A stretch of 64,000 bases of DNA from Elusimicrobiota bacterium. Its GTDB lineage: Bacteria; Elusimicrobiota; Elusimicrobia; UBA1565; JACRDR01. A model generated the notes under the pieces. That model did no database searches, was not told the origin of the DNA, and worked only from the letters and a program-made list of their open reading frames with translations. The stretch covers positions 1 to 64,000 of the forward strand of contig JBGFSC010000006.1 in the NCBI GenBank assembly GCA_041694815.1, written 5' to 3'. A program made the translations under genes and the position numbers. Positions within the stretch are counted from its first letter, which is position 1, and each line of letters opens with the position of its first letter. This document shows positions 9,376 through 45,616 of this stretch, one piece after another.

Positions 9376-9393
9376 TAGGACTTTCGGGCCCTA
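9376..9393. promoter_or_regulatory. Palindromic operator box upstream of the M14/M3 peptidase genes
   Basis: taggactttcgggcccta; variant spacing relative to the consensus. Confidence 0.5.
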
Positions 9394-9840
9394 TCTGTCA
9401 ATTGGAGAGCCGCCGCCGCGCCGGCCCTCGGGCTTTCCGATGAGGGCCGGGGTGGCGCCCTCGCCCAGCGGGACCGAAGAGGATTCGGGTGCCAATTGCT
9501 CCTGCTGGCGGCGCAATTGGCGGCTCATGCGCTTCATGTGGGCCTTGGCCTCGGCCTCCGACATCGGGCCGAGCTCGGCGGGGGCCGCGTCCTTGTCCGG
9601 GGGCACGATCTCGACGATGCCCATCTTTTTCTTCTCCTTCTCTAGGAAATCGTGGATCATCTCGTTGTTGACCGGAGGTGCGGGCTCGGCCAAGGCCGGC
9701 CCATCCATGGGGCCGGCGGGCCCCGCAGGGCCCGGGTTTTCTACGTACGGCAGGGGTTCAGGCCGGTGCAGGAAGGCGTAGAGCGCAGCACAGAGGAAGG
9801 CGGCGGCCGCCGCCCAGGCGACGGCGCGCAGGCGAGGCAT
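9391..9840 (-). CDS. Hypothetical membrane-anchored Pro-rich protein
   Basis: N-terminal TM; start codon overlaps the coaD stop. Confidence 0.65.
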   Translation of the reverse strand: MPRLRAVAWAAAAAFLCAALYAFLHRPEPLPYVENPGPAGPAGPMDGPALAEPAPPVNNEMIHDFLEKEKKKMGIVEIVPPDKDAAPAELGPMSEAEAKAHMKRMSRQLRRQQEQLAPESSSVPLGEGATPALIGKPEGRRGGGSPIDR

Positions 9841-10325
9841 TAGCTCCTTGTCTTGAACTTAACGCGCATCTGGCGCGCTACGACCGGTGGCACCATTTCG
9901 TCCAACTTCGATCCCATGCGCCCCACCTCCTTGACCATCGAGGAGGAAAGGTAGGTGTATTGCTCGTCGGGCATGAGAAAAACGGTCTCGACCTTCGGGT
10001 AGAGACGGCGGTTCATGGAGGCCATCTGGAACTCGTAGTCCAAATCCGAGACGGCGCGAAGGCCGCGGATGACGATATGCGCGTTCTTGAGCTTCAAATA
10101 GTCCACCAGCAGCCCGCTGAAGGTGTCGACCTCGGCCTGGGGGATGCCCCGGACGCTTTTTTCGAGCATGTCGAGCCGCTCGTGCACGCTGAAGGTATGC
10201 TTTTTAGACGGGTTATTGGACACCGCGATGATTACACGGTCGAACATGCGGCAGGCGCGGGCGATCAGGTCCAGGTGGCCGAGAGTGACGGGATCGAAAC
10301 TGCCAGGATAAACCGCTACGGTCAT
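9840..10325 (-). CDS. coaD: Phosphopantetheine adenylyltransferase
   Basis: AVYPGSFDPVTLGH, RGLRAVSDLDYEFQMA.MN, SSSMVKE. Confidence 0.97.
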   Translation of the reverse strand: MTVAVYPGSFDPVTLGHLDLIARACRMFDRVIIAVSNNPSKKHTFSVHERLDMLEKSVRGIPQAEVDTFSGLLVDYLKLKNAHIVIRGLRAVSDLDYEFQMASMNRRLYPKVETVFLMPDEQYTYLSSSMVKEVGRMGSKLDEMVPPVVARQMRVKFKTRS

Positions 10326-10408
10326 GGTGCCAGGCATCCACTTTCTACACTTTATTAACTTTCTTCCTTGAGAAGTTGAGAAAGTGAAGAAAGTGGATGC
10401 CTGGCACC
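10326..10408. repeat. REP/MITE-like palindromic element, family A
   Basis: Ends ggtgccaggcatccactttc ... gaaagtggatgcctggcacc; ACTTT subrepeats every 9 bp. Confidence 0.9.
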
Positions 10409-10414
10409 AATGTA

Positions 10415-10969
10415 CTAATTATCGGCGGCTTTTCGCCAGAGAGGCAGGGCGGCGGAGGCGATGGCGATCTTGACGCAGTCGCCGGGAATGAAGGGAAGAA
10501 GCCCCGCCGAGAGAAGGTTGGTCCCGGGCAAGAGGAAGCGCGACAGCCAGGCGAGCCCGCAGGTGAAGATGACGGCGCTGCCCAAGGCCAGCATCGCGAC
10601 GGTTTTGCCGGGCGAACGGTCCCAGCCGGACTCGGCGAGCCGGCCCACGAGCCAGGCGGCGGGCACGAAGCCGATGAGGTATCCTCCCGTCGGCCCCAGA
10701 AGATGCCAGAGGCCGAAAGCCCCGCCGGCAAAAAACGGCAATCCCGAGGCGCCCTCCAGGAGGTAGAGCGCCGTCGAAAAAGAGCCCCATCGGCTACCCA
10801 GCGCGGCGCCGGCGAAAAGCACCGCCAGGCTTTGGCCGGTCACGGGCACCACGGTCCAGGGCAGGCGGACCTCTATCTGCGCGCAGAGGCCTATCAAAAA
10901 GCTGAACGCCACAGCCTCCACGGCCCGGACGCCCGGGGCCCGCGTTTGGGCTATTGTCGCGCTAATCAT
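10415..10969 (-). CDS. bioY: Biotin transporter BioY
   Basis: VPVTGQSLAV, YLLEGASGLPFFAGG, GPTGGYLIGF, PFIPGD..K. Confidence 0.93.
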   Translation of the reverse strand: MISATIAQTRAPGVRAVEAVAFSFLIGLCAQIEVRLPWTVVPVTGQSLAVLFAGAALGSRWGSFSTALYLLEGASGLPFFAGGAFGLWHLLGPTGGYLIGFVPAAWLVGRLAESGWDRSPGKTVAMLALGSAVIFTCGLAWLSRFLLPGTNLLSAGLLPFIPGDCVKIAIASAALPLWRKAADN

Positions 10970-10986
10970 CGCGCGTATGCTAACAA

Positions 10987-11101
10987 ATGTTGGTGCCAGG
11001 CATCCACTTTCTTATGTTGGTGCCAGGCATCCACTTTCTTTACTTTCTCAACTTCCTAAGGCAGAAAGTCAACAAAGTGTAGAAAGTGGATGCCTGGCAC
11101 C
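10987..11101. repeat. Family A palindromic element (11019-11101) with a 27-bp tandem duplication of its left end
   Basis: atgttggtgccaggcatccactttctt occurs at 10987-11013 and 11014-11040; right end gaaagtggatgcctggcacc. Confidence 0.9.
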
Positions 11102-14614: not shown

Positions 14615-14615
14615 T

Positions 14616-14642
14616 AAAAAACCCACGCCTTAGGCGTGGGTT
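14616..14642 (-). promoter_or_regulatory. Hairpin plus U-tract immediately before the metH ATG
   Basis: Minus strand aacccacgcc-taa-ggcgtgggtt-tttt-a-ATG. Confidence 0.7.
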
Positions 14643-14645
14643 GTT

Positions 14646-14697
14646 CTCCTCTTTAGCGCCCTGTAGGCCGGGGCAATTCGGATCAAATCCTCGCCGA
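14646..14697 (-). ncRNA. SAM-II-like riboswitch
   Basis: Minus strand ggcgagGATTTGAtCCGaATTGCcccggcctacagggcGCTAAAgaGGag resembles the SAM-II core (GAUUU..CCG.AUUGC...GCUAAA..GG); located upstream of metH. Confidence 0.7.
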
Positions 14698-14742
14698 AGC
14701 TGCCAATAGAATAGCGTCTTTCGACGGGAAAATCAATGGTTT

Positions 14743-15534: not shown

Positions 15535-15595
15535 GCCTAACCGCTAGGGTAAATCGAAGTCCGCCGCTTGTCAACGGGAGATTGGTTATAAAGCG

Positions 15596-15625: not shown

Positions 15626-15642
15626 GGTCGGAAAGAACGGCT

Positions 15643-16371
15643 TTAACGATTGCGAATCTTGTCGATGAGCACGCCACCCGCGCCGATGGCCGCGCCGACG
15701 ACGGCGCCACCGATCACTCCGGTGCCGAGCAGGAAGCCCAGCGCCGCGCCCGCGACGATGCCTGCACCCAGGATGCGGGTGCGGTTGACACCGGCGTCAG
15801 ACTGCACGCCCACCTTGTTGGCCACCAGCGAGCCGAGCCCGAGGCCCAGGACGCCGGCGCCCAAACCGAAGAGCGTGGTGATGGCCACGTTCTGGGCGAC
15901 GAACGGGATGATCTCGCCCAAGCCGATCGTGATTCCGAAGAACGCGGCCATTTGCTGATAGGCCGCGACCGTCTGGAGCGAGCTGACCAAGCCCAAAGCG
16001 GCTCCGACCACTGCGGAAACGCCATGGGCCGTGCCGTTGCCCTTGCGGTTGGCTTTCGGCGCATCCGGCGGGGGAACCTCGCCGTTGCCGCCGTCGCCCT
16101 CGTTCGAAACGTACTTGAAGCTGCGGCCCTTGAGCCCGAACCGAGCCGCGACCCCGCCTTTGACGTTCTTGGCCGCGATGCCCGTCAGGGCTCGCTCGGC
16201 CTCGAGCGCTCCGGCGTGCATTCCCTCGGCGCTGCCCACTCCGGCCAGCTGCGAGGAGATTCCTGCGGCATTCTCCAGGTTGGTCGACAGGCCGCCCTGC
16301 GCGTAGCTCACGTTGCCGTAAGGCATGATCGCGAGCGCCGCCACTACGACTATCATGTTTTTCATTTTCAT
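15643..16371 (-). CDS. Secreted protein with C-terminal glycine-zipper hydrophobic helices
   Basis: SD ggaaggag; signal MKMKNMIVVVAALAIMPYGNVSYA; GAGIVAGAALGFLLG, GGAVVGAAIGAGG. Confidence 0.75.
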   Translation of the reverse strand: MKMKNMIVVVAALAIMPYGNVSYAQGGLSTNLENAAGISSQLAGVGSAEGMHAGALEAERALTGIAAKNVKGGVAARFGLKGRSFKYVSNEGDGGNGEVPPPDAPKANRKGNGTAHGVSAVVGAALGLVSSLQTVAAYQQMAAFFGITIGLGEIIPFVAQNVAITTLFGLGAGVLGLGLGSLVANKVGVQSDAGVNRTRILGAGIVAGAALGFLLGTGVIGGAVVGAAIGAGGVLIDKIRNR

Positions 16372-16457
16372 GCTCCTTCCTAAATCACTCCCAACCCCCC
16401 GGAGTGAGATCATGTTCAAGCGGGGCCTATTATAAGAACCATGGCCCAAAAATGACA

Positions 16458-16518
16458 TGGGCCTTGCGGCCCGCCGGGAAAGGTCTTTTGGCCTATGCGC
16501 CATAGGACCTTGGACCTG
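16458..16518. promoter_or_regulatory. Three tandem palindromic boxes in a divergent promoter
   Basis: tgggcc-ttgc-ggcccg (16458), aaggtc-tttt-ggccta (16480), taggac-cttg-gacctg (16503). Confidence 0.75.
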
Positions 16519-16539
16519 GTATGTTGTATATTCGCTTGA

Positions 16540-17142
16540 ATGGGCATCCGTAGCGCTTTGCTGCTTCTTCTCCTTGCCTCCACGGCGTCGAGGGCCGCCG
16601 AGGTCCCGGAGGGAGGCTGGCTTGTCGGCGTGGGCGCCGGGCTGGGCATGCCGTACGGGCCGGCGCAGGATAAGCTGGGATCGCCCATGCTCTTGGGTGG
16701 CCAAGCGATCTTCCACCGGCGCAAGGAATGGAGCGTCGGCGCCCAGCTTGACCGGCTCGCATTCAAATCCAAGGGAGGCAGTCGGGCCAACATGACCGCG
16801 GCCCTGGCCGTGCTGCGGGGGAATATCGGGATGGATTTCGAAAAATCGGTGCCGTACATGCTGTTCGGGGTCGGCTATTCCGAAAGCCACGCCGATGTGG
16901 CCGCGGGCGGAGAAGACCGCGGCGCCGGTCCCGCTTTCTGCCTAGGACTGGGGTTGGATTACGCGCTGGCTGGCCCGTTGGGTACTGGCTGGGAAGTGAA
17001 ATTCCAGAGAATGTCGGCGCCGTTGGGCAGGCTCGGTTTGACGGGAGCCACGGTGATCGCCTTCTACTTGAGGCTTAATTTTGGATGGGGACCGGGAGGA
17101 GATCCCTTCGAATCGGCCCCCAGGTCCCTTCACCAAAATTAA
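16540..17142 (+). CDS. Outer-membrane beta-barrel protein (OmpA/OmpW-like, 8-stranded)
   Basis: Signal peptide, PYMLFGVGY, LGLGLDY, alternating beta pattern. Confidence 0.7.
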   Translation: MGIRSALLLLLLASTASRAAEVPEGGWLVGVGAGLGMPYGPAQDKLGSPMLLGGQAIFHRRKEWSVGAQLDRLAFKSKGGSRANMTAALAVLRGNIGMDFEKSVPYMLFGVGYSESHADVAAGGEDRGAGPAFCLGLGLDYALAGPLGTGWEVKFQRMSAPLGRLGLTGATVIAFYLRLNFGWGPGGDPFESAPRSLHQN

Positions 17143-17156
17143 CGACCTTTAGGGAT

Positions 17157-17991: not shown

Positions 17992-17997
17992 TATTTA

Positions 17998-18725: not shown

Positions 18726-20156
18726 CTAACTTTCGATATGCGGCTTCGATTCCGACCACCCGGCCGGGGTGATGCGGACGAACTTGACCTTCTTCCACAG
18801 CGTGGGCAGGTCCTTGGCGCCCGAGTAGCTCATGCCCGAGCGCAGGCCCCCGGCGAGTTGGTGGATCACCTCCACCGCGTGGCCGCGGTAGGGGACCAGG
18901 GCCTCCACCCCTTCCGGCACCACTTCTAGAATTTCCTCGCGTTCGAGCTCCGCGTTCCCGCGCTCTTTTTGCTTCTTGGAAATCGTCGCCGCCAGGGAGG
19001 CCATCCCTCGGTAAGCCTTGTACTTCATGCCCTTGCGCACCACGGTCCAGCCGGGGCTCTCCTCCGTGCCCGCCAATAGGCTTCCGATCATGACGCAGGA
19101 CGCCCCGCCGGCCAAGGCCTTGGTGATGTCGCCCGAGTCGCGGATGCCGCCATCGGCGGTGATCGGCACGCCCTTGCTCTTGGTGATGCGGGCGCAATCC
19201 ATGATCGCCGAGAGCTGGGGAACCCCGGAGCCCGTGACGATGCGCGTCGAGCAGGTGGCCCCGGGGCCCACGCCCACCTTGACGCCGTCGGCGCCGGCCG
19301 CGGCCAGGTCCCGCGCTCCCTCGAAGGTCGCCACGTTGCCGGCCACGATCTCGATCTCCGGCCAGCGCGATTTGATCTTCTCGACCGCGAGGGTGACGTG
19401 GTCGGCATGCCCGTGCGCCACGTCGACGACCAGCACGTCGGCGCCGGCCTCCCGCAGCGCGGCGCTTCGGTCGATGTAGTCGCCCACGACGCCGACCGCG
19501 GCGCCGACCAAAAGGCGTCCCTTCTTGTCGAGCGAGGCGTAGGGGTAGCGCCGTTTTTTGAGCAGGTCCTTGGCCGTAATGAGCCCCTTGAGCGTCCCGG
19601 TCGCGTCCACCAAGGGTAGCTTTTCCACCTTGTGCTCGTTGAGTATTTTCTCGGCCTCGGAGAGGCTGACTCCAGGCTTGGCGGTGACTAGCTTTCGAGT
19701 CATGACCGAGCCGATCGGCTTGGGGTCGGCACTTTTGGGCTGGAACTGCAGGTCGCGCTGGGTCACGATGCCGACCAGGCGCCTCTGGCCGTCTACGACC
19801 AGCAGGCCACCCACTTGCCAACGGCGCATGAGCTCGCGCGCGCCCGAGACGGTATCGTTCGGCGAGAGGGTGTAGGGCGATTCGATGACGATGCTCTCGG
19901 CGCGCTTGACCTTGGCGACCTCGGCCACCTCCTCCTCGATCGTCAAGAAGCGGTGGATAACCCCCAGGCCGCCATGCTGCGCCATGGCGATGGCCATCTC
20001 TGCCTCGGTCACCGTGTCCATGTTGGCCGAGACGATGGGACACTTGAGCGCGATGCGCCGCGAGAAGCGGCCCGTCGTGTCGACATGCTTGCGCGAGACG
20101 ATGGAGGACCTTTGCGGGACCAGCAGCACGTCGCTGAAGGTATAGGCTTCCTTCAT
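18726..20156 (-). CDS. guaB: IMP dehydrogenase
   Basis: [12 protein letters not shown] pair, [34 protein letters not shown]. Confidence 0.97.
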
Positions 20157-20257: not shown

Positions 20258-20270
20258 GCCAGCAAGAACG

Positions 20271-20309
20271 TAGGCCCTTGGGCCCTATTATTTTTGCACG
20301 CAAGGCCCA
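20271..20309. promoter_or_regulatory. Palindromic box plus a half box 23 bp downstream, upstream of the FtsH-like gene
   Basis: taggcc-cttg-ggccct (20271), ttgcac-gcaa-ggccca (20294); TGcTAAAAT at about 20330. Confidence 0.7.
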
Positions 20310-20393: not shown

Positions 20394-22460
20394 ATGCTTC
20401 TGTCACAGACTCGGCGGTTTTGGCTGGCCGCGCTCGCCGCGGCCCTCCTCGGAACGTCCGCGCATGCGGTAGGGCGTTCCGACATCGAAATGCTGCTGCG
20501 GCGCCGTGACGCCGCGACCGCAAGGAATCTCACCCTTCTCGTCCGTGACCGTGGGCAGAATTTCCTTGCCAAGATCACGGCCGGCAGGCCGGATTCCGAC
20601 AAGGCCGTGCACGCCTGGGCCTTCGCGCATCCCGAGACCGCGGCCGATCTTTACTCCCTCCTGATTCAACGCGGCCGTGCCGGAGCCGAGGCGTTCGCGC
20701 GTCCGGAGTCCACTTATAAGGGAATCGAAGGCCACGCGCAGATGGTGGCCGACGACAAGAAGGCGTCGGCCGAGCAGGCCAACGGCAACGCGGGCAAGCC
20801 GTTCGACGGCTCAAGCAAGAAGGACGGATCGCTTCCCGTCAATACGGGCCCGGTCGCGAAGCCCAACGGCCAGCCGTCCGCCCAGAAGAAACCGGACAAT
20901 CTCCTCGAGCGCTTGAGGAAGTGGATGGATGATGAGCGCGACGGCGTCCCCGGCTCGAGCGGCAAGCGCGAGAGCGGCAAGGTCACCTTCAAGGATGTCA
21001 TCGGCCTCAAGGAAGCCAAGGCGCAGATCATACAGTTCGTCGACATACTCAAGAATCCCGAGAAGTACGCGCGCCTGGGCGCGGAGGTGCCGCGTGGCAT
21101 CCTGATGGTGGGGCCTCCCGGCAACGGCAAGACCCTTCTGGGCAAGGCTCTCGCCAACGAGGCGGGCTTCTCCTGCTTCATCGCGAAAGCGGGTCCTGAG
21201 TTCTCCAGTAAATGGGTCGGCGAGAGCGCGGCCGAGATCCGCCGCACCTTCGAGCAGGCCCGTGCGCAGGAGCCCTGCATCATCTTCATCGACGAATTGG
21301 ACGGCTTGGCGGCGGCCCGCACCGGCATCGACCAGTCCGTGGCCCGCGAATACAACTCCACCGTCGAGCAGCTGCTCGTCGAGATGGACGGCTTGACCGA
21401 GCACAGCAAGAACGGCAAGGTGCCGAAGGTCTTCGTCATCGGCGCCACGAACCGGCCGGACCTTCTCGACCCTGCGGTCATGCGCCCCGGGCGCCTGGAC
21501 CTGCATGTCGTGATCACCTCGCCCGACATCAAGGATCGCGAGGAGATGATCAAGTACTACGTCAAGAAGAAGAAAGTCCCGGCCAACGCCGACGTGGACT
21601 TCAAGATCCTGGCTGGCCGCACCACCGGCATGTCCGGAGCCGCGATCAAGGACTTCGTCAACAAGGCCGCCTTGGTGGCCGCGGAGGAGAACGCCCAGGA
21701 TGTCACGCTCAAGCATTTTCTCAAGGCCCTCGACCGGCTGCAAATCGGCGGCGAGCGGCGCATGGTGCTTAGCGACGCCGAGAAGATCATTACCGCGCGC
21801 CATGAGCTGGGCCACGCCCTGGTCGCCACCTATACGAAGGGCGGCGATCCCGTAGGCAAGATCACGATCATCCCGCGCGACATCGGCGCGCTCGGCGTGA
21901 CGACCTCCGAGCCGCCGGAAGACCGGAAGAATTGGAGCAAGACCCAGCTCCTCAACCAGATCGCCATGGCCATGGGAGGGCGCGTCGCTGAGAAGATTTT
22001 CTACAACGACGAGACCACCGGCGCCGCGAGCGACCTGGAGAATTCCCAGAACCTCGCCTGGCAGATGGTCGTGCGCTTCGGCATGAGCGAAAAGCTGGGG
22101 CCGGTTTCCTTCGTCAAGACCGCCCAGGGCAATTATCTCTCCGGCGGAGCCTCGATGCAGCCTGTTAGCGAAGAAATTCAAAAGCTCATCGACTCCGAGG
22201 TCAAGCGCTTCCTGCTCGAGGCCGAGCAGCGGGCCATGGCCATCCTTACCGCCAAGAAGGATGTCTTGGACAAGGTGGTGCCATACCTGATCAAACAGGA
22301 AACCATGGAGGGTTCGGACCTGCGCAAGCTGCTCAAGGAGTTAGACACGAACCCGGGAGAGTATCCCGTGCAGGACCCCCCGCCGCAACAGCCGGGCTCG
22401 GATAAGCCCTTCGCGACCACCCCGACCAATCTAGGGTGCTCGGCAGGCAGGCTGTATTAA
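20394..22460 (+). CDS. ftsH: FtsH-like AAA+ zinc protease with a cleavable signal peptide and no TM anchor
   Basis: GPPGNGKT, IIFIDELD, ATNRPDLLDPAVMRPGRLD, HELGH, GGRVAE, TTGAASDL. Leader MLLSQTRRFWLAALAAALLGTSAHA; SD ggagg. Confidence 0.9.
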   Translation: MLLSQTRRFWLAALAAALLGTSAHAVGRSDIEMLLRRRDAATARNLTLLVRDRGQNFLAKITAGRPDSDKAVHAWAFAHPETAADLYSLLIQRGRAGAEAFARPESTYKGIEGHAQMVADDKKASAEQANGNAGKPFDGSSKKDGSLPVNTGPVAKPNGQPSAQKKPDNLLERLRKWMDDERDGVPGSSGKRESGKVTFKDVIGLKEAKAQIIQFVDILKNPEKYARLGAEVPRGILMVGPPGNGKTLLGKALANEAGFSCFIAKAGPEFSSKWVGESAAEIRRTFEQARAQEPCIIFIDELDGLAAARTGIDQSVAREYNSTVEQLLVEMDGLTEHSKNGKVPKVFVIGATNRPDLLDPAVMRPGRLDLHVVITSPDIKDREEMIKYYVKKKKVPANADVDFKILAGRTTGMSGAAIKDFVNKAALVAAEENAQDVTLKHFLKALDRLQIGGERRMVLSDAEKIITARHELGHALVATYTKGGDPVGKITIIPRDIGALGVTTSEPPEDRKNWSKTQLLNQIAMAMGGRVAEKIFYNDETTGAASDLENSQNLAWQMVVRFGMSEKLGPVSFVKTAQGNYLSGGASMQPVSEEIQKLIDSEVKRFLLEAEQRAMAILTAKKDVLDKVVPYLIKQETMEGSDLRKLLKELDTNPGEYPVQDPPPQQPGSDKPFATTPTNLGCSAGRLY

Positions 22461-22482: not shown

Positions 22483-23826
22483 ATGGATCAGCCCGCCGGG
22501 GCTTCAGACGACGCGCTCGGGGCTAAAAGCTCCGAGCGCGTCGTCGCTTTTCTGCTGTTTCTCTGGCTTTTTTCCATCATCTGTTCGTATTACATCCTGC
22601 GCCCCGTCCGCAGCGCGCTGATCCTCTCGGAGTTCGGGCCCAAGGCTCTCCCCTGGGCGTACATGGGCACGGCGCTGTTTACCGGCATCGCGGTCTGGAT
22701 TTACACCCAGTTCACGTACCTGCCGCGTAAGACGCTGCTTACCCGCGTGATCCTGTTTTTTATCTCCAATTTCGCCGTGTTGTGGTGGATCGTCAGCAGG
22801 CGCATCCCTTGGTCGGCCGGCATTTTTTACGTCTGGACGGACATTTTCTCCATCATGGCCGTGACGGTTTTTTGGATGTACGTAAACGACGTCTTTCCCT
22901 CGAAGTCCGCCAAGCGGAGCTTCGGCATCATCGGTTCGGCAGGCCCGGCCGGCGCCATCGCCGGCGCCGCCTTGATCAAAATTTTCGTCCGCCGTGTGGG
23001 CGTGGAGCAGATGCTGCTGGTCGCTGGCGGATTCTTCGGCTTAGGGCTGTTGATTTTTTGGGCGCTCGAGTTCCTCACCGGTGGACGATCGGCTGAGCGC
23101 AAGAAGGCGATAGAGAAATTCGAGCAATACAATTTTTCCGAGTTTTCCAGCTTGATGCGTTCCGTGGCGCGATCAAGGGTGCTGACCCTGTTGACGGTCG
23201 CCGTGTGCTTCGAGCGTTTCGCGCCGGATTTCGTTGATTACGTGTTTTCGGCGGCCCTGCATCATGCCTATCCGGACAAGCTCGGCTACGCGGCCGTCTT
23301 CGCCACCTTCGAGTTCTGGCGCAACGTGCTCGTGTTCATCGCCACGCTGTCGCTCACCTCGACCATCCTGCGCACGCTCGGAGTGCACGTGGCCATTACC
23401 GCCGTGCCGATGACCATCCTCATCGGTGGCGCGGCCTACGCGCTGTTCCCGTTCCTGGGGGTGGCCATCGCCTTGAAGGGCTTGGAGGAGGGCCAGCGGC
23501 ATGCGTGGTTTAAGGCGGGCAAGGAAGTGATCTATACGGCCACGCATTCCGACGTCATCTACAAGGTCAAGGGCTATCTCGAGATGTTCCTCTACCGTTT
23601 TTCGCGGGGTCTGGCTGGCCTCATCATCTTGTTCTTGACCAGCGGTCTGGGTCTGGGCGCCGTCGGCGTGGCCTGGGCCGTGGTCCCGCTGGCCGCGCTG
23701 TGGGCGGTCGTGACCTGGAAGCTGGGCAAGGCGTACGAAACCAGCGAGGCCGGAGCGGCCGATAAAGAGGAGCCCGCTCTCCCCTTGGGCAAAGAGGCGT
23801 CAATATCTCAAGGTGCCAGGGATTGA
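22483..23826 (+). CDS. NTT/TLC-family (ATP/ADP translocase-like) MFS-fold transporter
   Basis: About 12 TM; YYILRPVRSAL, FYVWTDIF, FW..VNDVF...AKR.FG.IG..G..G, KEVIY......YKVKGYLEMFLYR match NTT-family signature spacing. Confidence 0.78.
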   Translation: MDQPAGASDDALGAKSSERVVAFLLFLWLFSIICSYYILRPVRSALILSEFGPKALPWAYMGTALFTGIAVWIYTQFTYLPRKTLLTRVILFFISNFAVLWWIVSRRIPWSAGIFYVWTDIFSIMAVTVFWMYVNDVFPSKSAKRSFGIIGSAGPAGAIAGAALIKIFVRRVGVEQMLLVAGGFFGLGLLIFWALEFLTGGRSAERKKAIEKFEQYNFSEFSSLMRSVARSRVLTLLTVAVCFERFAPDFVDYVFSAALHHAYPDKLGYAAVFATFEFWRNVLVFIATLSLTSTILRTLGVHVAITAVPMTILIGGAAYALFPFLGVAIALKGLEEGQRHAWFKAGKEVIYTATHSDVIYKVKGYLEMFLYRFSRGLAGLIILFLTSGLGLGAVGVAWAVVPLAALWAVVTWKLGKAYETSEAGAADKEEPALPLGKEASISQGARD

Positions 23827-31954: not shown

Positions 31955-33230
31955 TCGTTTATTCCGCCGGGCTTGCGGACTGCTGCCAGGCGGGGTCAAT
32001 TCGCCGGTGAGGGCCTTCAAGGCGGTCGGCGGCACTCCGCGCTTTATCCGCTCAGGCAAGGGAGCTCGAATTTTAGATGAGGATGGGCGTTCCTATATCG
32101 ATTATTGCCTTTCCTGGGGACCTCTTATCCTAGGCCATGCCCACCCCGCCGTCGTCGCCGCAGCGTCTCGCGCACTGAAAAGGGGATCGAGCTTCGGCGC
32201 GCCGACCGAGGCCGAATCGCGGCTGGCCGAGTTGATCCGCTCCGCCTTGCCCTCGATGCGTATGCTGAGGCTGACGAGCTCAGGCACCGAGGCCGTCATG
32301 AGCGCCCTGCGCCTGGCCCGCGCCTTCACGAGGCGTGACTGGATCGTGAAGTTCTCGGGATGCTATCACGGTCATGTCGACAGCCTGCTGGTCTCCGCTG
32401 GCTCAGGCGCTATGACATTAGGCAGTCCGGATTCCGCGGGCGTACCCGAATCTTGGGCCCGGATGACGCTTTCTTTGTCTTACAACGATGTCGCTTCCGT
32501 CGAGAACGCGTTCGCCCAATATGGCGGGCGCATCGCCGCCGTCATCATCGAGCCGCTGGCCGCGAACATGGGAGTCGTGGCGCCGCGCGAAGGATTTCTC
32601 AAGGCCTTGCGCGAGATCACCCGGCGGCACGGGGCCTTGCTTATCTTCGACGAGGTGGTGACCGGCTTCCGTCTGGAGTTCGGCGGCGCCCAGACGCTCT
32701 GGAAGATAGAGCCCGATCTGACCTGCCTGGGAAAAATTATTGGAGGGGGATTTCCAATCGGCGCTTACGGGGGGCGGCGCGAAATCATGGAGATGGTAGC
32801 GCCTTTGGGGCCGGTGTATCAGGCGGGGACCCTCTCCGGCAACCCCGTCGCCGTCGCCGCCGGCATCGCCTGTCTCGAGACTCTCCGCCGCCAGAAGCCG
32901 TACGCGCGCATGGCGCGTCTGGCCTCGCGGCTCGCCGAGGGGTTGCGCCGGCAGGCGTCGGGACTGGGCGTGCCCTTGACCGTCCAGCAATTCGCCTCTA
33001 TGCTGACCCCTTTCTTTCACGCAGGACCGATCAGCGATTACGCCAGCGCGAAGGCGGCCGACACCCGGGCTTACGCCCGATTCTTCCATGCCATGCTTCG
33101 CGAGGGAATATACCTGCCTCCGGCGCAATTCGAGGCCGCCTTCCTGTCAGCCGCGCATACCGAAAAGGACGTCGATCTCAGCTTGAGGGCAGCGGGTAGG
33201 GCGCTGGATTCGCTAACGCGAAGGACTTAG
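31941..33230 (+). CDS. hemL: Glutamate-1-semialdehyde 2,1-aminomutase
   Basis: PGGVNSPVRAF, SWGPLILGH, SGTEA, FDEVVTGFR, GKIIGGG, YQAGTLSGNP. Confidence 0.97.
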   Translation: MEKSDRLFRRACGLLPGGVNSPVRAFKAVGGTPRFIRSGKGARILDEDGRSYIDYCLSWGPLILGHAHPAVVAAASRALKRGSSFGAPTEAESRLAELIRSALPSMRMLRLTSSGTEAVMSALRLARAFTRRDWIVKFSGCYHGHVDSLLVSAGSGAMTLGSPDSAGVPESWARMTLSLSYNDVASVENAFAQYGGRIAAVIIEPLAANMGVVAPREGFLKALREITRRHGALLIFDEVVTGFRLEFGGAQTLWKIEPDLTCLGKIIGGGFPIGAYGGRREIMEMVAPLGPVYQAGTLSGNPVAVAAGIACLETLRRQKPYARMARLASRLAEGLRRQASGLGVPLTVQQFASMLTPFFHAGPISDYASAKAADTRAYARFFHAMLREGIYLPPAQFEAAFLSAAHTEKDVDLSLRAAGRALDSLTRRT

Positions 33231-33824
33231 CGAGACGAGCACTGGAAGGCCTTTGTAGAAAAAAACGAGGACGCCTTCCGGCAAGCCCATGGCGGCTCTC
33301 TGATCGGCGGACGCTTCCTTGACGCCAGCTACCTTGCGGATGGCCATGAGTACGCGCGACTGAGTCGCGATCCCGCTGTCGATGCCCACGAGTATCGCGG
33401 GGGGCGCGGGGATGACGCCGATGCTTACCCGCGGCCTATCTCCGTCATCGTAAACGGGGATCGGTATGCGATTCAAGGCGTCCGCGAATTCCTTCGCGGT
33501 CCGGAGCAGGTCTTCTTCTTTTGGTGCGCCTCCGCCGAACATGGTCGATAGAATTTGCTCCATCAGCTTGTTCTGATCCGAGCCGCGGCCCTGCGGAGCC
33601 GCTTGGATTTTCGGGATTTCCAGAAGCGGCAGTTTCCCATCCGCATCAGCCAGATTTGCCGGTCCTTCCTTTGTATAGCCTTCCGGCAAGGTGAGTAAGG
33701 GCAGTTTTCCCTGCTCGTCGAATTGGGCATCGCCCTGTTGCCTGGCATCCTCCGGGCTTTCGGCGAAGCAGGGAACGCCCGCTAAGAATACGGCGCTTAC
33801 GGCGAGAGTGAATATGGAGTTCAT
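33213..33824 (-). CDS. Secreted hypothetical protein with the SxExA..FD / KLPLL N-terminal module
   Basis: Signal MNSIFTLAVSAVFLAGVPCFA; N-terminal module paralogous to 35667-36278. Confidence 0.75.
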   Translation of the reverse strand: MNSIFTLAVSAVFLAGVPCFAESPEDARQQGDAQFDEQGKLPLLTLPEGYTKEGPANLADADGKLPLLEIPKIQAAPQGRGSDQNKLMEQILSTMFGGGAPKEEDLLRTAKEFADALNRIPIPVYDDGDRPRVSIGVIPAPPAILVGIDSGIATQSRVLMAIRKVAGVKEASADQRAAMGLPEGVLVFFYKGLPVLVSLSPSR

Positions 33825-33858
33825 GCCTCCAGTATGGGCCTTATTCCTCCGCGGCGCA

Positions 33859-33921
33859 TGAGTCCCAAGACCTAAATCGTCTGGGTCCTTGGGCCCCGAG
33901 AATTTAGGACCAAAAGGCCCT
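33859..33921. promoter_or_regulatory. Three tandem palindromic boxes (23-bp period) in a divergent promoter
   Basis: tgagtc-ccaa-gaccta (33859), tgggtc-cttg-ggcccc (33882), taggac-caaaa-ggccct (33905). Confidence 0.75.
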
Positions 33922-33954: not shown

Positions 33955-35664
33955 ATGAAAAAACTACCCGTCGTACTCGCCCTCTTCACCGTATTATCCG
34001 TCGCGCCCAGCCCACGCTCCTATGCCCAGTTCGGCAATCCGTTCGCCGCGCAGGAGGAGCAACATAAGAAGGTCGTAGGAAGGCTCGGCGAAGCGCTCAA
34101 TGCCAAGCAGTCCGAGATGCCTAAGGATGTTTGGAAGAGAGTCCATGAGGAATATAACCGCCTCCTTAATATGCAGCCCCACAATCCCGAGGCCCAGAAA
34201 TCGATAGATTACCTGCAATGGTTCATCGATCTTCCTTGGGGAAAAGAGACCCAGGATCGATTCGACCTGGCGGAGGCTCAAAAGATATTAGACCGCGATC
34301 ATTACGGGCTCGACCAGGTCAAGGAGCGTGTCATCGAGTACCTGGCGGTCCGCAAGAGAACCGCCTCGCAGAAGGGAGGCATTCTCTGCTTCGTGGGGCC
34401 CAAGGGAACCGGGAAAACCTCCATCGCCAAGGCCATCGCCGAGTCCATGGGCCGCAGCTTCGTCCGCTTGTCTCTGGGCGGAGTCAATAACGAGGCGGAA
34501 TTGCGCGGGTTTCAGAGGACCTATATGGGATCACGGCCGGGCAGCATCATCACCCAGATGAAGAACGCCAAGACGATAAACCCCGTGATGCTCATGGACG
34601 AGGTGGACAAGCTGGCCGATGGCAGTCACTACGGCGATCCTCGGGCGGCGCTCTTGGAGATCCTCGACCCGGAGCAAAATAATACCTTCCGGGACCATTA
34701 TATGGATGTCCCCTATGATTTGTCGAAGGTGCTCTTCATCCTCACGGCCAACGATATGAGGAGGATCCCACCGCCCCTGCTCGACCGCGTGGAGATCATC
34801 GAGTTCTCGGCCTACACGGTGCGCGAGAAGGTGGGCATAGCCCAGCACCATATCGTGGGCCGTAAGCAGCGCGAATGCGGCATCAAGCCGGGCTCCTGCG
34901 AGCTCACCGTCGCGGCCATCGAGCAGATCATCGACGGCTACACGATGGAGGCCGGGGTGCGCAACCTGCAGGAGAACATCGGCGGCGTCTACCGCAAGGC
35001 CGCCGCCTGGGAGGAGACCAAGGGCCTGCCCATCCCCAAGAAGATCGATCATGGGCAGGTGAAGGATTACCTGGGAGCCCCGCGCTACGGCCACCGCATC
35101 ATGGAGGAAAACGGCGTCGGGGTCGGCACGGGCTTGGCGGTCAGCGACAACGGCGGGAGCACGCTCAACGTCGAGGTGCTCAAGGTGCCCGGAGACGGCA
35201 AGGTCCGCACCCGTGAGTTGATGGAGAAGATGTTCCAGGATTCCGCCGACAATGCCGTGGCCTACGTCAAGTCCAAGGCCGTGGAACTGGGCATCGATCC
35301 GGAGGATTTCAAGAAATACGATCTGGAGATCGCGATAGCTCCCGCGATTCCGGTCGACGGGCCTTCGGCGGGTACCGCCATGACCACGGCGATCGCGAGC
35401 AGCTTGAGCGGCCGCAGGATCCGTAAGGGAGTAGCCATGACCGGCGAGGTCACGTTGACCGGCAAGGTGCTCCCGATCGGTGGGCTCAAGCAGAAGGTGA
35501 TGGCGGCCGAGCGCATGGGCTACGACACGGTGCTTTTCCCCGCCGCCAACGAGCATGAGCTCGAGGAGATTTCCCCCGAAGTGCGCAAGAAGATGACATT
35601 GGTGCCCGTCAAGACGATGGACGAGGTCTTGAATCTGGCCTTGGAGCCCCGGCCCCAGGCCTGA
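33955..35664 (+). CDS. lon: Lon protease lacking the LON_N substrate domain, with signal peptide
   Basis: LD.DHYGL..VKERV.EYLAV, GPKGTGKTS, MDEVDK, ALLEILDPEQN..F.DHY, DGPSAG (Ser), PIGGLKQK (Lys). Leader MKKLPVVLALFTVLSVAPSPRSYA. Confidence 0.92.
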   Translation: MKKLPVVLALFTVLSVAPSPRSYAQFGNPFAAQEEQHKKVVGRLGEALNAKQSEMPKDVWKRVHEEYNRLLNMQPHNPEAQKSIDYLQWFIDLPWGKETQDRFDLAEAQKILDRDHYGLDQVKERVIEYLAVRKRTASQKGGILCFVGPKGTGKTSIAKAIAESMGRSFVRLSLGGVNNEAELRGFQRTYMGSRPGSIITQMKNAKTINPVMLMDEVDKLADGSHYGDPRAALLEILDPEQNNTFRDHYMDVPYDLSKVLFILTANDMRRIPPPLLDRVEIIEFSAYTVREKVGIAQHHIVGRKQRECGIKPGSCELTVAAIEQIIDGYTMEAGVRNLQENIGGVYRKAAAWEETKGLPIPKKIDHGQVKDYLGAPRYGHRIMEENGVGVGTGLAVSDNGGSTLNVEVLKVPGDGKVRTRELMEKMFQDSADNAVAYVKSKAVELGIDPEDFKKYDLEIAIAPAIPVDGPSAGTAMTTAIASSLSGRRIRKGVAMTGEVTLTGKVLPIGGLKQKVMAAERMGYDTVLFPAANEHELEEISPEVRKKMTLVPVKTMDEVLNLALEPRPQA

Positions 35665-35666: not shown

Positions 35667-36278
35667 ATGAGCAAGGCCACGGCAAGCTACTGGCTCGCCT
35701 TAGCCATTATCGCGCTCTCTGCGGTTGGCCGCGCGGCGGAGACCGCCAAAAGCGACGAGGAGGCCAAGCAGCAGGCTGACCTCCAATTCGATGAGTCGGG
35801 CAAACTGCCCCTACTTACCTTACCGAAAGGGTATAAAGCGGAAAGACCGGCGATGGGCAGTCTCGGAACAGCTCCTCTTAATATCACCGATGCGCAGGAC
35901 AAGCTTCCGCTCTTGCCGATCCCTTCACCGGCTCCAGCCCGACGCGCCGGGCCGAACGTGCTTGAAGGGCTTATCGGCAGCTTGATCGGCTCCGCCATCG
36001 GCAGCCATGTATTTGTCAATGTCTTTACCCCGATGTTCTCGGCGCAGCCGCTGCTGATCCCCATCGTCGCGGCTATTTTCGGCATGTCCATGGGGACTCG
36101 CATGGCCATGCCGATGGCGATGTTGATAAGGCGTCGCTGGCCCATGATCGTTATGCCCCTGTTGCTCGGAGCCGTTTGCTTCCTGATCCCTCCCATGGGT
36201 GGAGCGATATGGGGAATGATGATTCTGGGACCGCTATTCGCCCGCCTTTTGGCTAAACTCGGGTCTTTAAAGAAGTAA
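35667..36278 (+). CDS. Secreted/membrane protein with the SxExA..FD / KLPLL module and a hydrophobic Met/Gly-rich C-terminus
   Basis: Signal peptide; 2 bp after lon; several C-terminal hydrophobic helices. Confidence 0.75.
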   Translation: MSKATASYWLALAIIALSAVGRAAETAKSDEEAKQQADLQFDESGKLPLLTLPKGYKAERPAMGSLGTAPLNITDAQDKLPLLPIPSPAPARRAGPNVLEGLIGSLIGSAIGSHVFVNVFTPMFSAQPLLIPIVAAIFGMSMGTRMAMPMAMLIRRRWPMIVMPLLLGAVCFLIPPMGGAIWGMMILGPLFARLLAKLGSLKK

Positions 36279-39386: not shown

Positions 39387-39479
39387 GAAGCCTCCCGGGT
39401 CCCTTTGCTTTGCGGCGGGTTCTGCCACGCCACCCCGCCGCATTTCAAGCATAAAGGATGCACGGTAATGCCAATCCTG

Positions 39480-41452: not shown

Positions 41453-41514
41453 TCGAATATCCTATCAAACTTGACAAAGGCGGCGGAATTCTGGGATTAT
41501 CGCCGTATTCCCCG

Positions 41515-43469: not shown

Positions 43470-43470
43470 A

Positions 43471-43695
43471 ATGATCAAGCTACTGATCGCCGCCGTCGTC
43501 TGCGCCGCGCTGTATGTGGGCTTGTCGAAGTTTTGGACGAAGGAAAAGGTGATGGAAAGCGCCCCGGTGCAGTACACCCAAGGCCTGCAGCAGAACGTGG
43601 AGAAGGCGGAAAAGTCCGCCGCGGCCGCCAACCAAAAGATCGCCGAGATGCAGCGGCAGGCCGACGCCTTCCGCCAACCATCTTCCGGCGAGTAG
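43471..43695 (+). CDS. Small membrane-anchored hypothetical protein
   Basis: SD gaggtg, N-terminal TM, coiled coil. Confidence 0.65.
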   Translation: MIKLLIAAVVCAALYVGLSKFWTKEKVMESAPVQYTQGLQQNVEKAEKSAAAANQKIAEMQRQADAFRQPSSGE

Positions 43696-43712
43696 CTGTA
43701 TTTCTGAAAACC

Positions 43713-43775
43713 TAGTACTTTAGGCCTATCCTGGCTGGGAACAAAAAAAGGTCCAAAATTGGACCTTTCGACCCA
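43713..43775. promoter_or_regulatory. Palindromic boxes upstream of the 43832 gene
   Basis: tagtac-ttta-ggccta (43713) and ttggac-ctttc-gaccca (43759, +46); degenerate site at +23. Confidence 0.65.
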
Positions 43776-43831
43776 TGCGCTCAGCCGATTTTCAAGGCAT
43801 ATTTTTATTGAATGGCAGTTTGGGAGGAAAA

Positions 43832-44356
43832 ATGAATTCAAAATCGTTCGTTGTTGCCGCTCTCATGACCTTATGTTGTGTTTCGGGCAGCAATGCCGTC
43901 GATAATAGCGATATCGCCGAGGATATTCGGAAAATCCACAAACACTTTCAGGAGAATGGATTCCGGCATCAGCCGGCCGGATTGCCGCCTCTCAACGGGA
44001 GACGCCAGGACTGGGTTGTCGTGGATCGAATGAACGAGATCATCAAGCATTGCATCACTTATAACTATTGGATCTTGAACCGGCCGGGGGGATTGAACGT
44101 TTTCGGAATGAGCCATACGGATCTGTCCCGTTCGTCCATCGTCTCTTATCTGATGAGCATAGACAGCTATGTGATGGATGCTCGGGAGAAGGCGTGGAAC
44201 CCGAATGCTCGGAATATTCTACAAACGCTTCACGAGCACATCATGCTGCGTGCCCATGCAGCGCCGTTGCGTAGCAAAGACGGTCATTTGCTGACCATTT
44301 ATCATGAGATTTTGGATCTTGCCCAAAAGGCGAAAGAAGCTGAACGTGGTTATTGA
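43832..44356 (+). CDS. Secreted hypothetical protein (lower GC than its surroundings)
   Basis: SD gggagg; signal MNSKSFVVAALMTLCCVSGSNA. Confidence 0.75.
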   Translation: MNSKSFVVAALMTLCCVSGSNAVDNSDIAEDIRKIHKHFQENGFRHQPAGLPPLNGRRQDWVVVDRMNEIIKHCITYNYWILNRPGGLNVFGMSHTDLSRSSIVSYLMSIDSYVMDAREKAWNPNARNILQTLHEHIMLRAHAAPLRSKDGHLLTIYHEILDLAQKAKEAERGY

Positions 44357-44384
44357 TTAGTTCGGTTCCGCACGTCTTCCTAAC

Positions 44385-44447
44385 TAGGCATAAAGGCCTA
44401 ATCATTCCTGGGCCGAAAGACCCGGACTCTTTAGGCCCTTTGTATCC
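44385..44447. promoter_or_regulatory. Three tandem palindromic boxes upstream of the PK-like gene
   Basis: taggca-taaa-ggccta (44385), tgggcc-gaaa-gacccg (44409), taggcc-cttt-gtatcc (44432). Confidence 0.75.
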
Positions 44448-44482
44448 TGCGCCCGACCCCTTTCGCCTGTAAAGTAAAAGGG

Positions 44483-45616
44483 ATGACGCTACGTGTCGCG
44501 TTCGCCTTGTGGTTGGCTTGCTCGCCTGGGGGGTGGGCCCAGGATGCGATTGATCAACTTCGGGAAGCCGCGTTGGCATCAGCTTCCCGGCAGCCCGAGG
44601 CGCCGCCATATGCGGTCGGGCGCTCAATCGGGCTCATCGTTGCCCTGGGACCGGCGTCTTTCGATCCCGAGGTAATCAAAGGGATCGTCCGGGCCGGGGC
44701 CGTCGGGCTTCGGCTCAATATGGCGCACATGGACCGGTCTAAGACGGGGCTAGTGAGCGGAGCGATCGCCGAGGCCCTCAGGGCCGTTGGCCGCGCGACA
44801 ATGCCCGTGCTCTATGATTTGCCCGGTGGCAAGGTGCGTACGGGTCCCGCGCCCGAGGCAGGAAGCGTCGCTCTCCAGGCGGGCCAAGCCTTCGTCTTGT
44901 TCTACGGCGGAAAGCTCGTCTCCTCGACGGCGGATCAAGCGAGCATCGACTATCCGGATTTAGCACCCCATATCAAAATCGGCGATCGCGTGCGGATATA
45001 TCAAGGCGAGATCGAGTTGCTGGTCACCGCGATGTCCGCGGGACGCATCGAGACGAGGGTGCTTCGAGGCGGGAATCTGCGCGGGCATGCGACCGTCGAC
45101 TTCCCCGCGCGGGAACTTCCGTTTCCGCGCATGCGCGAGGAGGATCGGCAAAAACTGCGGATCGCCGTGGAGAACGGCGCCCTGTATATCGGCGTCTCCA
45201 TGGTGCAGAGGCCGGATCAAATGGACGCGATGCGAGAGGAGCTGCTCCGGTTGGGGGCTCCGCATGCCAAGCTGGTGGCCAAGATCGAGACTTTGTCCGC
45301 GCTGGAAAACCTGGACGCTATCGTCGAGCGATCGGACATGGTCATGATCGCGGGAGGAGATCTTTCGGCCGCCGTCGGCGACCAGGAGGCGCTATTGGCG
45401 GCCGAAGGCAAAATCGCCGAGGCGGCCGTTCGGCACGGAAAGCCCCTTATCGCGGCGACGATCTATGAAGGCCCCGACGCCCCGCGGAAAGTCAGGCGGG
45501 CGGCCTCCTTCGGCGCCGATTACATCATGCTCGAGTCGACGGCGATGGCCTCCGACCCCGTGGGCCTCGTTTCCGGTTTTCAGGCCGTCTTAGGCGAGAG
45601 CGGCGCGAGGTTCTGA
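44483..45616 (+). CDS. Divergent pyruvate kinase-like protein with signal peptide and no C-terminal regulatory domain
   Basis: LGPAS, RLNMAH, DLPGGKVRT, AKIET..ALENLDAIV..SDMVMIAGGDL, PLIAAT, ADYIML. Leader MTLRVAFALWLACSPGGWA. Confidence 0.85.
   Translation: MTLRVAFALWLACSPGGWAQDAIDQLREAALASASRQPEAPPYAVGRSIGLIVALGPASFDPEVIKGIVRAGAVGLRLNMAHMDRSKTGLVSGAIAEALRAVGRATMPVLYDLPGGKVRTGPAPEAGSVALQAGQAFVLFYGGKLVSSTADQASIDYPDLAPHIKIGDRVRIYQGEIELLVTAMSAGRIETRVLRGGNLRGHATVDFPARELPFPRMREEDRQKLRIAVENGALYIGVSMVQRPDQMDAMREELLRLGAPHAKLVAKIETLSALENLDAIVERSDMVMIAGGDLSAAVGDQEALLAAEGKIAEAAVRHGKPLIAATIYEGPDAPRKVRRAASFGADYIMLESTAMASDPVGLVSGFQAVLGESGARF

Follow-up and report, generated by a model that had tools for sequence, protein, structure and literature searches.

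Why would a bacterium place export-type leaders on enzymes that run on ATP, when the bacterial periplasm is generally held to have no ATP and envelope proteases and chaperones hence to work without it? The question is raised by a 64,000-nucleotide stretch of an Elusimicrobiota genome, here called the window, which corresponds to C9:1-64000 in a 2.77-Mb assembly of 54 contigs (completeness 97.8%, contamination 0.48%, GC content 61-67%). The window carries genes for an FtsH-like protease, a Lon-like protease and a pyruvate kinase-like (PK-like) protein, each with a hydrophobic N-terminal leader. An earlier note had taken these, together with an M3 oligopeptidase, for a dedicated system lying between positions 9376 and 45616. 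The notion of a co-regulated set of leader-bearing paralogues of cytoplasmic ATP enzymes survives our analysis, whereas their confinement to that interval does not, as the regulon is genome-wide. Sequence comparison reveals at least seven nucleotide-dependent enzyme families that combine a conserved export-type leader with intact catalytic motifs and with cytoplasmic twins retained in the same genome. Our preferred reading, held tentatively and as somewhat short of probable, is that these enzymes are exported and use ATP in an extracytoplasmic nucleotide pool, most likely in the periplasm, as part of a secretome regulon. The genes that carry the argument are listed here.

20394 to 22460, plus strand: FtsH-like AAA+/M41 protease with a leader, a private N-domain, PFDG at residues 136-139 and no second membrane helix.
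22483 to 23826, plus strand: TLC-like (remote NTT-like) carrier of the major facilitator superfamily (MFS), starting 22 nt after the FtsH-like gene and predicted to be co-transcribed with it.
33955 to 35664, plus strand: Lon-like protease of 569 aa, with the leader MKKLPVVLALFTVLSVAPSPRSYA followed by Q, and with AAA+, lid and Lon_C (S16) domains.
44483 to 45616, plus strand: PK-like, barrel-only pyruvate kinase with the leader MTLRVAFALWLACSPGGWA followed by Q and no C-terminal domain.
C15:3073-5367 and C2:22715-25135: two leader-bearing ClpA/B-like double-AAA proteins (Pfam/NCBIfam).
C20:63843-66542: leader-bearing protein with two AAA_5 modules (Pfam/NCBIfam).
C9:74299-74958: leader-bearing adenylate kinase, an ADK domain with P-loop (PF00406, 7.3e-37).

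Pfam was run on 38 open reading frames of the window, and NCBIfam was applied in addition to selected proteins. Outside the window, 40 genes were annotated, mostly targets of the operator described below along with some tag- or P-loop-bearing proteins that lack a site. Signal peptides were scored with a simple rule set of our own together with hydropathy, which flags 18% of 2406 crude gene calls as carrying a signal peptide without further membrane segments; leader counts in homologues were restricted to sequences that start with Met. The leaders of the FtsH-like, Lon-like, PK-like and M3 proteins consist of an uncharged stretch of 13-17 residues followed by a small-x-small motif, and no 19-residue hydrophobic window occurs later in the chain. 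A basic N-tail with 2-5 positive charges precedes the stretch, and A-x-A then Q is common at its end. Under the rule set these are the features of a Sec-type signal peptide, namely a basic n-region, a 10-17-residue h-region and a small-x-small c-region, all conserved in orthologues. Indeed, the signal peptides that had been claimed for these four proteins are present as signal-peptide-like hydrophobic leaders, and they appear to fit cleavable Sec signals better than membrane anchors. The true starts do not lie downstream, as the family matches begin upstream of the alternative start codons. Often the leader is followed by a spacer rich in Pro and Ala and then by a short helix with F/Y-D-G at its end.

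The FtsH-like gene has a Shine-Dalgarno sequence, GGAGG, 6 nt before its start codon, and its product begins with MLLSQTRRFWLAALAAALLGTSAHA. The protein matches PF00004 (2.1e-37) and PF01434 (6.8e-58) and contains HELGH, an instance of the HEXXH motif. No Pfam match to the FtsH_ext domain was found, and the score of 486.6 bits is below the 600-bit cut-off of the equivalog TIGR01241. Full-length relatives are rare, with only three among 5.8 billion clusters (P0123-P0125), all of which have a leader and FDG or FEG before the AAA module. When the proteins of genomes G401 and G404 are counted as well, all six FtsH-like proteins (window, P0123-P0125, G401 and G404) carry a leader and have a single short N-terminal hydrophobic stretch, as opposed to two strong segments in the canonical FtsH encoded on C24. 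A helix at the N-terminus is in itself usual for FtsH, in which two such helices flank a periplasmic domain and leave the catalytic part in the cytoplasm. A metagenome scan with the N-terminal part of the window protein returned 108 pattern matches, of which 0 were confirmed. Export by the Tat route was considered and rejected: the window copy contains TRRFWL, but an RR pair occurs in only four of the six leaders (window, G404, P0124 and P0125) and is absent from those of G401 and P0123. As a separate observation, the pore-loop region of the FtsH-like protein reads KWVGES, compared with MFVGVG in the canonical FtsH of this genome. We take the former to be closer to classic-clade AAA proteins, and this pore loop suggests a divergent or hybrid AAA module ahead of the M41 domain.

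The Lon-like protease scores above the cut-off of the LonA equivalog TIGR00763 (633.4 vs 608.05 bits) over profile positions 249-795. Positions 1-248 are missing, and no PF02190 match to the LAN domain was found in the window protein. It is 47% identical to the LonA of the same genome, and its closest relatives form an Elusimicrobiota clade at 50-60% identity whose members are 850-990 aa long. In most of these clade mates the LAN domain is present, preceded by a leader, a long Ala/Pro/Ser spacer and F/Y-D-G at residues 113-176. The window protein is the only 569-aa form in the clade, having kept the leader and lost the spacer, the tag and the LAN domain. A leader was flagged in 34 of 40 clade sequences and recognized by eye in 4 more, compared with 3 of 67 canonical-like Lon proteins. 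Because the Walker A and B motifs, sensor 1, the arginine finger, sensor 2 and the Ser-Lys dyad are invariant in all 47 sequences of the clade, the window copy included, ATP use by these proteins is, judging from this conservation, under selection.

For the PK-like protein, the barrel family PF00224 is matched at 3.3e-40 and PF02887 is lacking; the TIGR01064 score is 165 bits against a cut-off of 306.4. The public gene call begins at 44720 and has no leader. The Pfam match, however, begins at residue 49 of the long form, a region that the 44720 start would remove, and the long form is on this ground predicted to be the right one. About 14 relatives of 303-504 aa were found, none with the C-terminal PK domain, and a leader is present in 10 of 12 of them compared with 1 of 24 canonical PKs.

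Screening leader-bearing proteins for P-loops added the two ClpA/B-like proteins, the AAA_5 protein and the adenylate kinase. The two nearest foreign cluster representatives of the Clp-like proteins have leaders, compared with a flagged fraction of 10/147 among all Met-starting representatives. Adenylate kinase scores slightly below the NCBIfam cut-offs (for example, 158.1 vs 187), and close orthologues occur in 17 of 30 relatives. Each of the seven orthologues examined opens with a signal-peptide-like segment that leads into a long Pro/Ala/Val spacer, and two of the seven have FDG six to eight residues before the P-loop strand. The canonical paralogues whose presence the earlier note wanted confirmed exist elsewhere in the genome, with FtsH on C24, LonA on C3 and PK on C21; a second membrane FtsH-like protein is encoded on C27, and canonical adenylate kinase, ClpP and ClpC-like copies are present as well. 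In public data, a Clp-like protein (P0283) and a Lon-like protein (P0037) have a near-identical 35-residue leader, ending in LSVALTVSLLLPVFIVSPRQIFA and followed by EPVRE, a likeness suggesting that leaders have been exchanged between different ATPases of a single organism.

The peptide motif that the earlier note described as common to three window proteins occurs more often than chance would predict. Its regular expression, S.E.A...[AG]...FD, matches 4 predicted proteins compared with 0.1 expected by shuffling; three of them are in the window, and all three are leader-bearing. A broader tag, defined as an acidic residue and then F/Y-D-G/E within residues 16-70, occurs in 18 of 595 leader proteins and 9 of 1746 others; among leader-bearing proteins it is found (residues 16-200) in 10 of 57 regulon members and 22 of 538 others. 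The bare FDG tripeptide was set aside as a marker, as its enrichment after signal peptides is weak (6/431 vs 10/1519) and only the fuller tag expression is enriched. Tag carriers also include M13 peptidases, an amylase, WD40 propellers and a HEAT protein. Since the tag sits at the junction of spacer and catalytic domain, our guess is that it might be a docking site or a processing site.

What, then, do these genes have in common upstream? The box first described, GGNC-N4-GNCC, occurs 2055 times in the genome with an intergenic density of 1.08x, which is a chance-level pattern without intergenic enrichment, and it was replaced by a position weight matrix (PWM). The refined site is a 16-bp palindrome, T[AG]GGnC-N4-GnCC[TC]A. 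Counted genome-wide at a PWM threshold of at least 14 bits, there are 140 sites, 113 of which (81%) are located in intergenic DNA, a fraction that makes up 12% of the genome. Sites peak 40-120 bp before start codons, and neighboring sites lie 23-24 bp (10 pairs) or 46-47 bp (8 pairs) from each other, in agreement with the arrays of about 23 bp originally noted. The exact 16-mer pattern outnumbers its reversed control in all five genomes compared from the same family and in most of those from a second family; pairs at 24 bp recur there too. Variants of the form AGGNC-Nx-GNCCT with spacers of 3, 5 or 6 nt are depleted in intergenic DNA and were discarded. We also rejected a hairpin: mirror positions show no covariation (pair 4/17, 72 complementary vs a shuffle mean of 70.5; pair 7/14, 45 vs 51.8). 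Because the halves of the palindrome do not covary, we consider it a putative protein-binding operator and not an RNA or DNA hairpin. No further conserved column, such as a fixed -10 or -35 element, was found beside the operator in 66 oriented sites. The operators of the window (PWM scores) and the leader-bearing orphan genes near them are as follows.

15643 to 16371, minus strand: orf16371, leader-bearing orphan with a Gly-rich hydrophobic C-terminal part.
16430 to 16521, no strand assigned: four operators spaced 22-25 bp apart (7.4, 8.2, 19.6 and 17.7 bits), between the divergent orf16371 and orf16540.
16540 to 17142, plus strand: orf16540, leader-bearing orphan.
20268 to 20289, no strand assigned: operator (18.5 bits) 116 nt upstream of the FtsH-like gene and divergent from gene 18726-20156.
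33213 to 33824, minus strand: orf33824, leader-bearing orphan with the tag ending QFDEQGKLPLLTLP, an N-terminal paralogue of orf35667.
33856 to 33900, no strand assigned: two operators 23 bp apart (15.0 and 9.4 bits), between orf33824 and the Lon-like gene.
35667 to 36278, plus strand: orf35667, leader-bearing orphan with the tag ending QFDEQGKLPLLTLP and C-terminal hydrophobic segments, starting 3 nt after the Lon-like gene.
43710 to 43778, no strand assigned: two operators 47 bp apart (18.4 and 11.3 bits), upstream of orf43832.
43832 to 44356, plus strand: orf43832, leader-bearing orphan with no family match.
44382 to 44427, no strand assigned: two operators 24 bp apart (19.7 and 15.3 bits), 91 and 67 nt upstream of the PK-like gene.

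The claim that every unit has the same box upstream can be kept in part. The refined site precedes orf16371, the FtsH-like gene, the orf33824/Lon-like pair, orf43832 and the PK-like gene, whereas the box as first written is unspecific, orf35667 has no operator site of its own, and the unit of M14 carboxypeptidase and M3 oligopeptidase genes has only a 6-nt-spacer variant at 9376, which scores below 7 bits and belongs to a spacing class that is not enriched in intergenic DNA.

Beyond the window, the operator is associated with exported proteins at large. Among genes with a site within 300 bp upstream, 48 of 116 are leader-bearing without further membrane segments, compared with 383 of the remaining 2290 (odds ratio 3.5, p = 1e-9). 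When only genes preceded by 60 bp or more of intergenic DNA are compared, the leader-bearing fractions are 40/101 and 125/803. Thus, the proposed enrichment of the box upstream of signal-peptide genes is found for the refined palindrome, whereas the original box had to be redefined before it could be seen. The targets include three subtilases (S8), M28, M16 and trypsin-like peptidases, a Met-zincin and Endonuclease I, as well as proteins of the FGE-like, DUF885, HEAT, TPR and WD40 types and one Omp85-PD40 protein; the Clp-like and AAA_5 proteins listed above are targets too. Among these, the S8, M16 and trypsin-like peptidases belong to families whose members are ordinarily exported. The operator would therefore appear to mark a broad, genome-wide secretome regulon and not a dedicated ATP-enzyme system. 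Two strong operators (18.0 and 23.6 bits), 23 bp apart, also precede the SecA gene (C51:11339-14023, outside the window), and the regulator of the secretome therefore probably sets export capacity too. No transcription factor stood out beside the strongest sites. Operators also lie upstream of the small genes C11:6481-6669, C34:37312-37539, C39:33975-34247 and C52:48435-48713, which by their N-termini we presume to be HicA-, RHH-, AbrB- and Phd-like toxin-antitoxin components.

A transporter gene does directly follow ftsH, as had been remarked. The carrier it encodes is 447 aa long and passes Pfam TLC with 40.4 bits (cut-off 21) in a partial match to positions 138-370 of 491. Its sole match in the PDB is chain 9j3n_A, ADP,ATP carrier protein 1, at an E value of 6.7e-5 (chain length 586 aa). 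A paralogue is encoded on C25. Orthologues at 55-59% identity are found in G404 and G401, which belong to the same family, and in both genomes the gene is located directly downstream of a leader-bearing FtsH-like gene. Upstream of each pair lies an operator (16.7 and 18.0 bits), with a trypsin-like protease gene running in the opposite direction. Elsewhere in the order, in other families, the carrier begins with a signal peptide and an Ala/Pro spacer of its own. Two of these genomes encode proteins of about 900 aa (L043 5544-8321 in G314 and L045 5261-7951 in G341) that consist of a signal peptide, an Ala/Pro spacer, an Exo_endo_phos domain and a C-terminal carrier. Because the carrier bears a leader in other families and follows the FtsH-like gene in G401 and G404, its link to the leader-bearing set is, on this pattern of fusion and gene order, real.

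Several other genes in or beyond the window touch on these subjects. The M14-M3 operon (below) lies outside the unusual set; M3, which had been counted among the ATP-dependent enzymes, is neither ATP-dependent nor unusual, and the box is lacking.

6033 to 9343, minus strand: M14 carboxypeptidase and M3 oligopeptidase operon, encoding ordinary secreted peptidases without an N4 operator; M3 (6033-8048) has the leader LLALIAALTHSAWA followed by A.

Both orf33824 and orf35667 repeat KLPLL(T/E/P)(L/I)P, which resembles the first strand of the Lon N-domain in the clade mates (..APV(I/L)ALTKVFFPG), and the two orphans may be remnants or mimics of the leader cassette that the window Lon has lost. On C18, a 178-aa stand-alone fragment (C18:8636-9172) is like the C-terminal half of the M41 domain, with 29% identity to residues 462-656 of the FtsH-like protein, and is preceded by two operator copies (17.8 and 17.4 bits). 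A leader-bearing Peptidase_C39_2-like protein is encoded at window positions 150-1652, with two repeats of about 115 residues in its C-terminal half. Between the leader-bearing genes of the window are housekeeping genes for MetH, AddAB, HemB, HemL, ArgS and NadD (Pfam).

What we observe directly is the leaders with their conservation, ATPase and protease motifs that are intact, an enriched operator and shared gene order; from these we infer the following arrangement. A global regulator would bind arrays of the 16-bp palindrome 40-120 bp upstream of about 100 genes, mainly those of the secretome. These would include the extra Lon-like, FtsH-like, two ClpA/B-like, AAA_5 and PK-barrel paralogues, with the adenylate kinase as a member of the leader-bearing set that has no operator. 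The leader-bearing proteins would truly be exported and would act with ATP in a space holding an adenine-nucleotide pool, most likely the periplasm. The TLC-like carrier would exchange nucleotides across the inner membrane, and the adenylate kinase and PK-like protein would buffer ATP. We rank an ATP-supplied periplasm first because an exported adenylate kinase makes sense only with an adenine-nucleotide pool, because the FtsH-like protease has lost the helix that would return its chain to the cytoplasm, recalling the topology of mitochondrial Yme1, and because the carrier is predicted to be co-transcribed with the FtsH-like gene. More doubtful is the fuller picture of a diderm clade that runs its periplasm as an ATP-supplied compartment, with exported Lon, FtsH-like and Clp-like unfoldase-proteases that would perhaps digest folded proteins acquired as food, fed by the carrier, buffered by adenylate kinase and PK-like enzymes and placed under one regulator, much like the mitochondrial intermembrane space.

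A number of points weigh against nucleotide-driven work in the periplasm. A passage in PMC4243693 gives the bacterial periplasm as generally taken to be ATP-free, and porins would allow ATP to leak. The parts of the set are distributed differently across relatives and do not form one co-inherited system: members of the Lon clade occur widely in the phylum, the FtsH-like/TLC-like pair is found in 3 same-family genomes, and the PK-like protein was not found in 30 relatives, where only canonical-length PKs at 30-33% identity turned up, in 4 genomes. A search for the N-domain of the FtsH-like protein in 400 other genomes of the phylum matched the start of the AAA module only. No leader-bearing ClpP was found; the genome has 2 ClpP genes and one weak match, and the copy inspected (C52) has no leader, the second gene being on C3 in the canonical Lon cluster. 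Adenylate kinase lacks an operator and lies downstream of two genes without leaders. As for the carrier, its earlier designation as an ATP/ADP translocase is unproven, for it is only a remote NTT relative whose score for TIGR00769, the NTP/NDP (nucleoside tri- and diphosphate) exchanger family, is 34.4 bits against a cut-off of 387.2. The regulon also fronts toxin-antitoxin-like genes and genes without leaders, and the regulator is therefore predicted not to be limited to exported proteins.

Nearly as good as an ATP-supplied periplasm, if on balance unlikely, is an account in which the enzymes are exported and then sent beyond the outer membrane, by a type II-like system or in vesicles, to act in prey, in a host or in fresh lysate, while the carrier imports scavenged nucleotides. 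A regulon rich in secreted proteases, with Endonuclease I among its members, would serve for feeding or attack; 4 secretins and several T2SS-F platform genes are present; known NTTs import nucleotides; and an exported adenylate kinase would be sensible in a milieu that holds nucleotides. The fusion of the carrier to a leader and Exo_endo_phos in G314 and G341 suits the scavenging and import of nucleotides no less than it suits ATP export. However, neither an injection system nor a signature of host dependence was seen, although no search was aimed at either, and this largely complete 2.77-Mb genome retains the biosynthetic MetH, HemB and NadD. Hexameric AAA+ machines would be awkward type II cargo, Sec signals alone would be insufficient for delivery into another cell, and the long spacers are more tether-like than effector-signal-like.

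If the leaders were instead not translocation signals, and either held the enzymes against the inner membrane on its cytoplasmic side or were never engaged by Sec, cytoplasmic ATP would be used and no ATP outside the cytoplasm would be required. Membrane-anchored AAA+ proteases such as FtsH and archaeal LonB are well known, the latter being named in PMC4343526. Our rule set is crude in this very respect: it also flags the first helix of ordinary FtsH proteins (52/86) and cannot distinguish such a membrane helix from a signal peptide, and for this reason we rely mainly on the comparison with homologues. We nevertheless consider a cytoplasmic-face tether improbable. The hydrophobic stretches, at 13-17 residues and ending in Pro or Gly, are too short for a membrane helix, the positive charges of the N-tail favor an N-in, C-out orientation, and A-x-A then Q is conserved, as at signal peptidase I sites. 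The F/Y-D-G tag also occurs on normally exported families (the M13 peptidases and the amylase), and what the FtsH-like protein has lost is precisely the second helix, the one needed to bring its chain back into the cytoplasm. Export of proteins that work independently of ATP, as passive chaperones, peptidases or scaffolds, seems to us more improbable still. ATP-independent Lon relatives of the LonC type exist, and the window Lon-like protein has lost its N-domain, but the ATPase and Ser-Lys motifs are invariant throughout the Lon clade, and a leader-bearing adenylate kinase would be pointless without adenine nucleotides. Least credible of all, and very improbable, is an artefact of wrong start codons, bin contamination or chance motifs. 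The leaderless public call for the PK-like gene and the chance-level original box would speak for it, yet the family matches begin ahead of the alternative starts, the leaders recur in orthologues from other assemblies, bin contamination is slight, and the refined operator is largely intergenic and recurs at orthologous places in G401 and G404.

If the leader-bearing enzymes are both exported and active, either the periplasm would hold a managed adenine-nucleotide pool or the machines would go where foreign ATP exists, and delivery to foreign ATP would imply an unrecognized predatory or host-associated lifestyle in Elusimicrobiota. Genetics is almost absent for this phylum, and the operator offers a way into a large secretome regulon there. 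No paper on an exported bacterial Lon, FtsH or Clp was found in the literature searched, a body of work that leaves most subscription journals outside its coverage. Newly described here are the palindromic operator with its regulon, an operon that pairs the FtsH-like and TLC-like genes, a carrier that bears a leader, the family of PK-like proteins, and a leader-bearing adenylate kinase that occurs order-wide.

How does this set compare with systems already known? The leaders have a counterpart in Bacteroidetes, where Sec/signal peptidase I leaders reportedly have Gln at +1, a 'Q-rule' said to have been described by Bochtler and colleagues in 2018. Most leaders of the Lon clade and of the FtsH-like and PK-like proteins likewise have a basic N-tail, a short hydrophobic core and A-x-A then Q. 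They differ in that they belong to another phylum, that a long Pro/Ala-rich spacer and an F/Y-D-G helix come after the leader, and that the cargo includes ATP-dependent enzymes. The window Lon-like protein resembles LonA in passing its equivalog cut-off with AAA+ and Ser-Lys motifs intact, but it has a cleavable-looking leader and no LAN region (positions 1-248), and its clade mates carry the leader, spacer and FDG ahead of the LAN domain. In LonB, which is membrane-anchored, the membrane helices sit inside the AAA module, whereas the window protein has a cleavable-looking leader at its N-terminus. With the NTT/Tlc carriers of Chlamydiae, Rickettsiales and plastids, the window carrier shares its Pfam TLC match and, through its PDB match, likeness to an ADP,ATP carrier; it differs in falling far below the TIGR00769 cut-off, in matching TLC only partially over its 447 aa, and in having relatives fused to a leader and Exo_endo_phos.

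A close parallel to an ATP-supplied periplasm is found in mitochondria, whose intermembrane space corresponds topologically to the periplasm and has a toolkit that comprises the i-AAA protease Yme1 (FtsH family), adenylate kinase 2 (AK2) and the ADP/ATP carrier. The bacterial set has similar parts: a protease of the FtsH family that has no return helix, an AAA+ unfoldase of the Clp type, an adenylate kinase and a putative nucleotide carrier of the inner membrane. The disaggregase CLPB (CLPB/SKD3) resides in this mitochondrial compartment, as stated in a passage of PMC9934407. The bacterial proteins, however, use Sec-type leaders and the FDG tag and not mitochondrial import signals, their carrier is TLC/MFS-like and not of the SLC25 type, and Lon and PK-like proteins are included; no descent from the mitochondrial set is implied. 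A prokaryotic inter-membrane space with ATP-dependent chemistry is found in Ignicoccus hospitalis, whose ATP synthase is located in the outermost membrane according to a passage in PMC4243693. Ignicoccus is an archaeon with a relocated ATP synthase, whereas here ATP would need a carrier or an outside source. Taken together, the mitochondrial intermembrane space and Ignicoccus indicate that ATP-holding compartments of this kind do exist.

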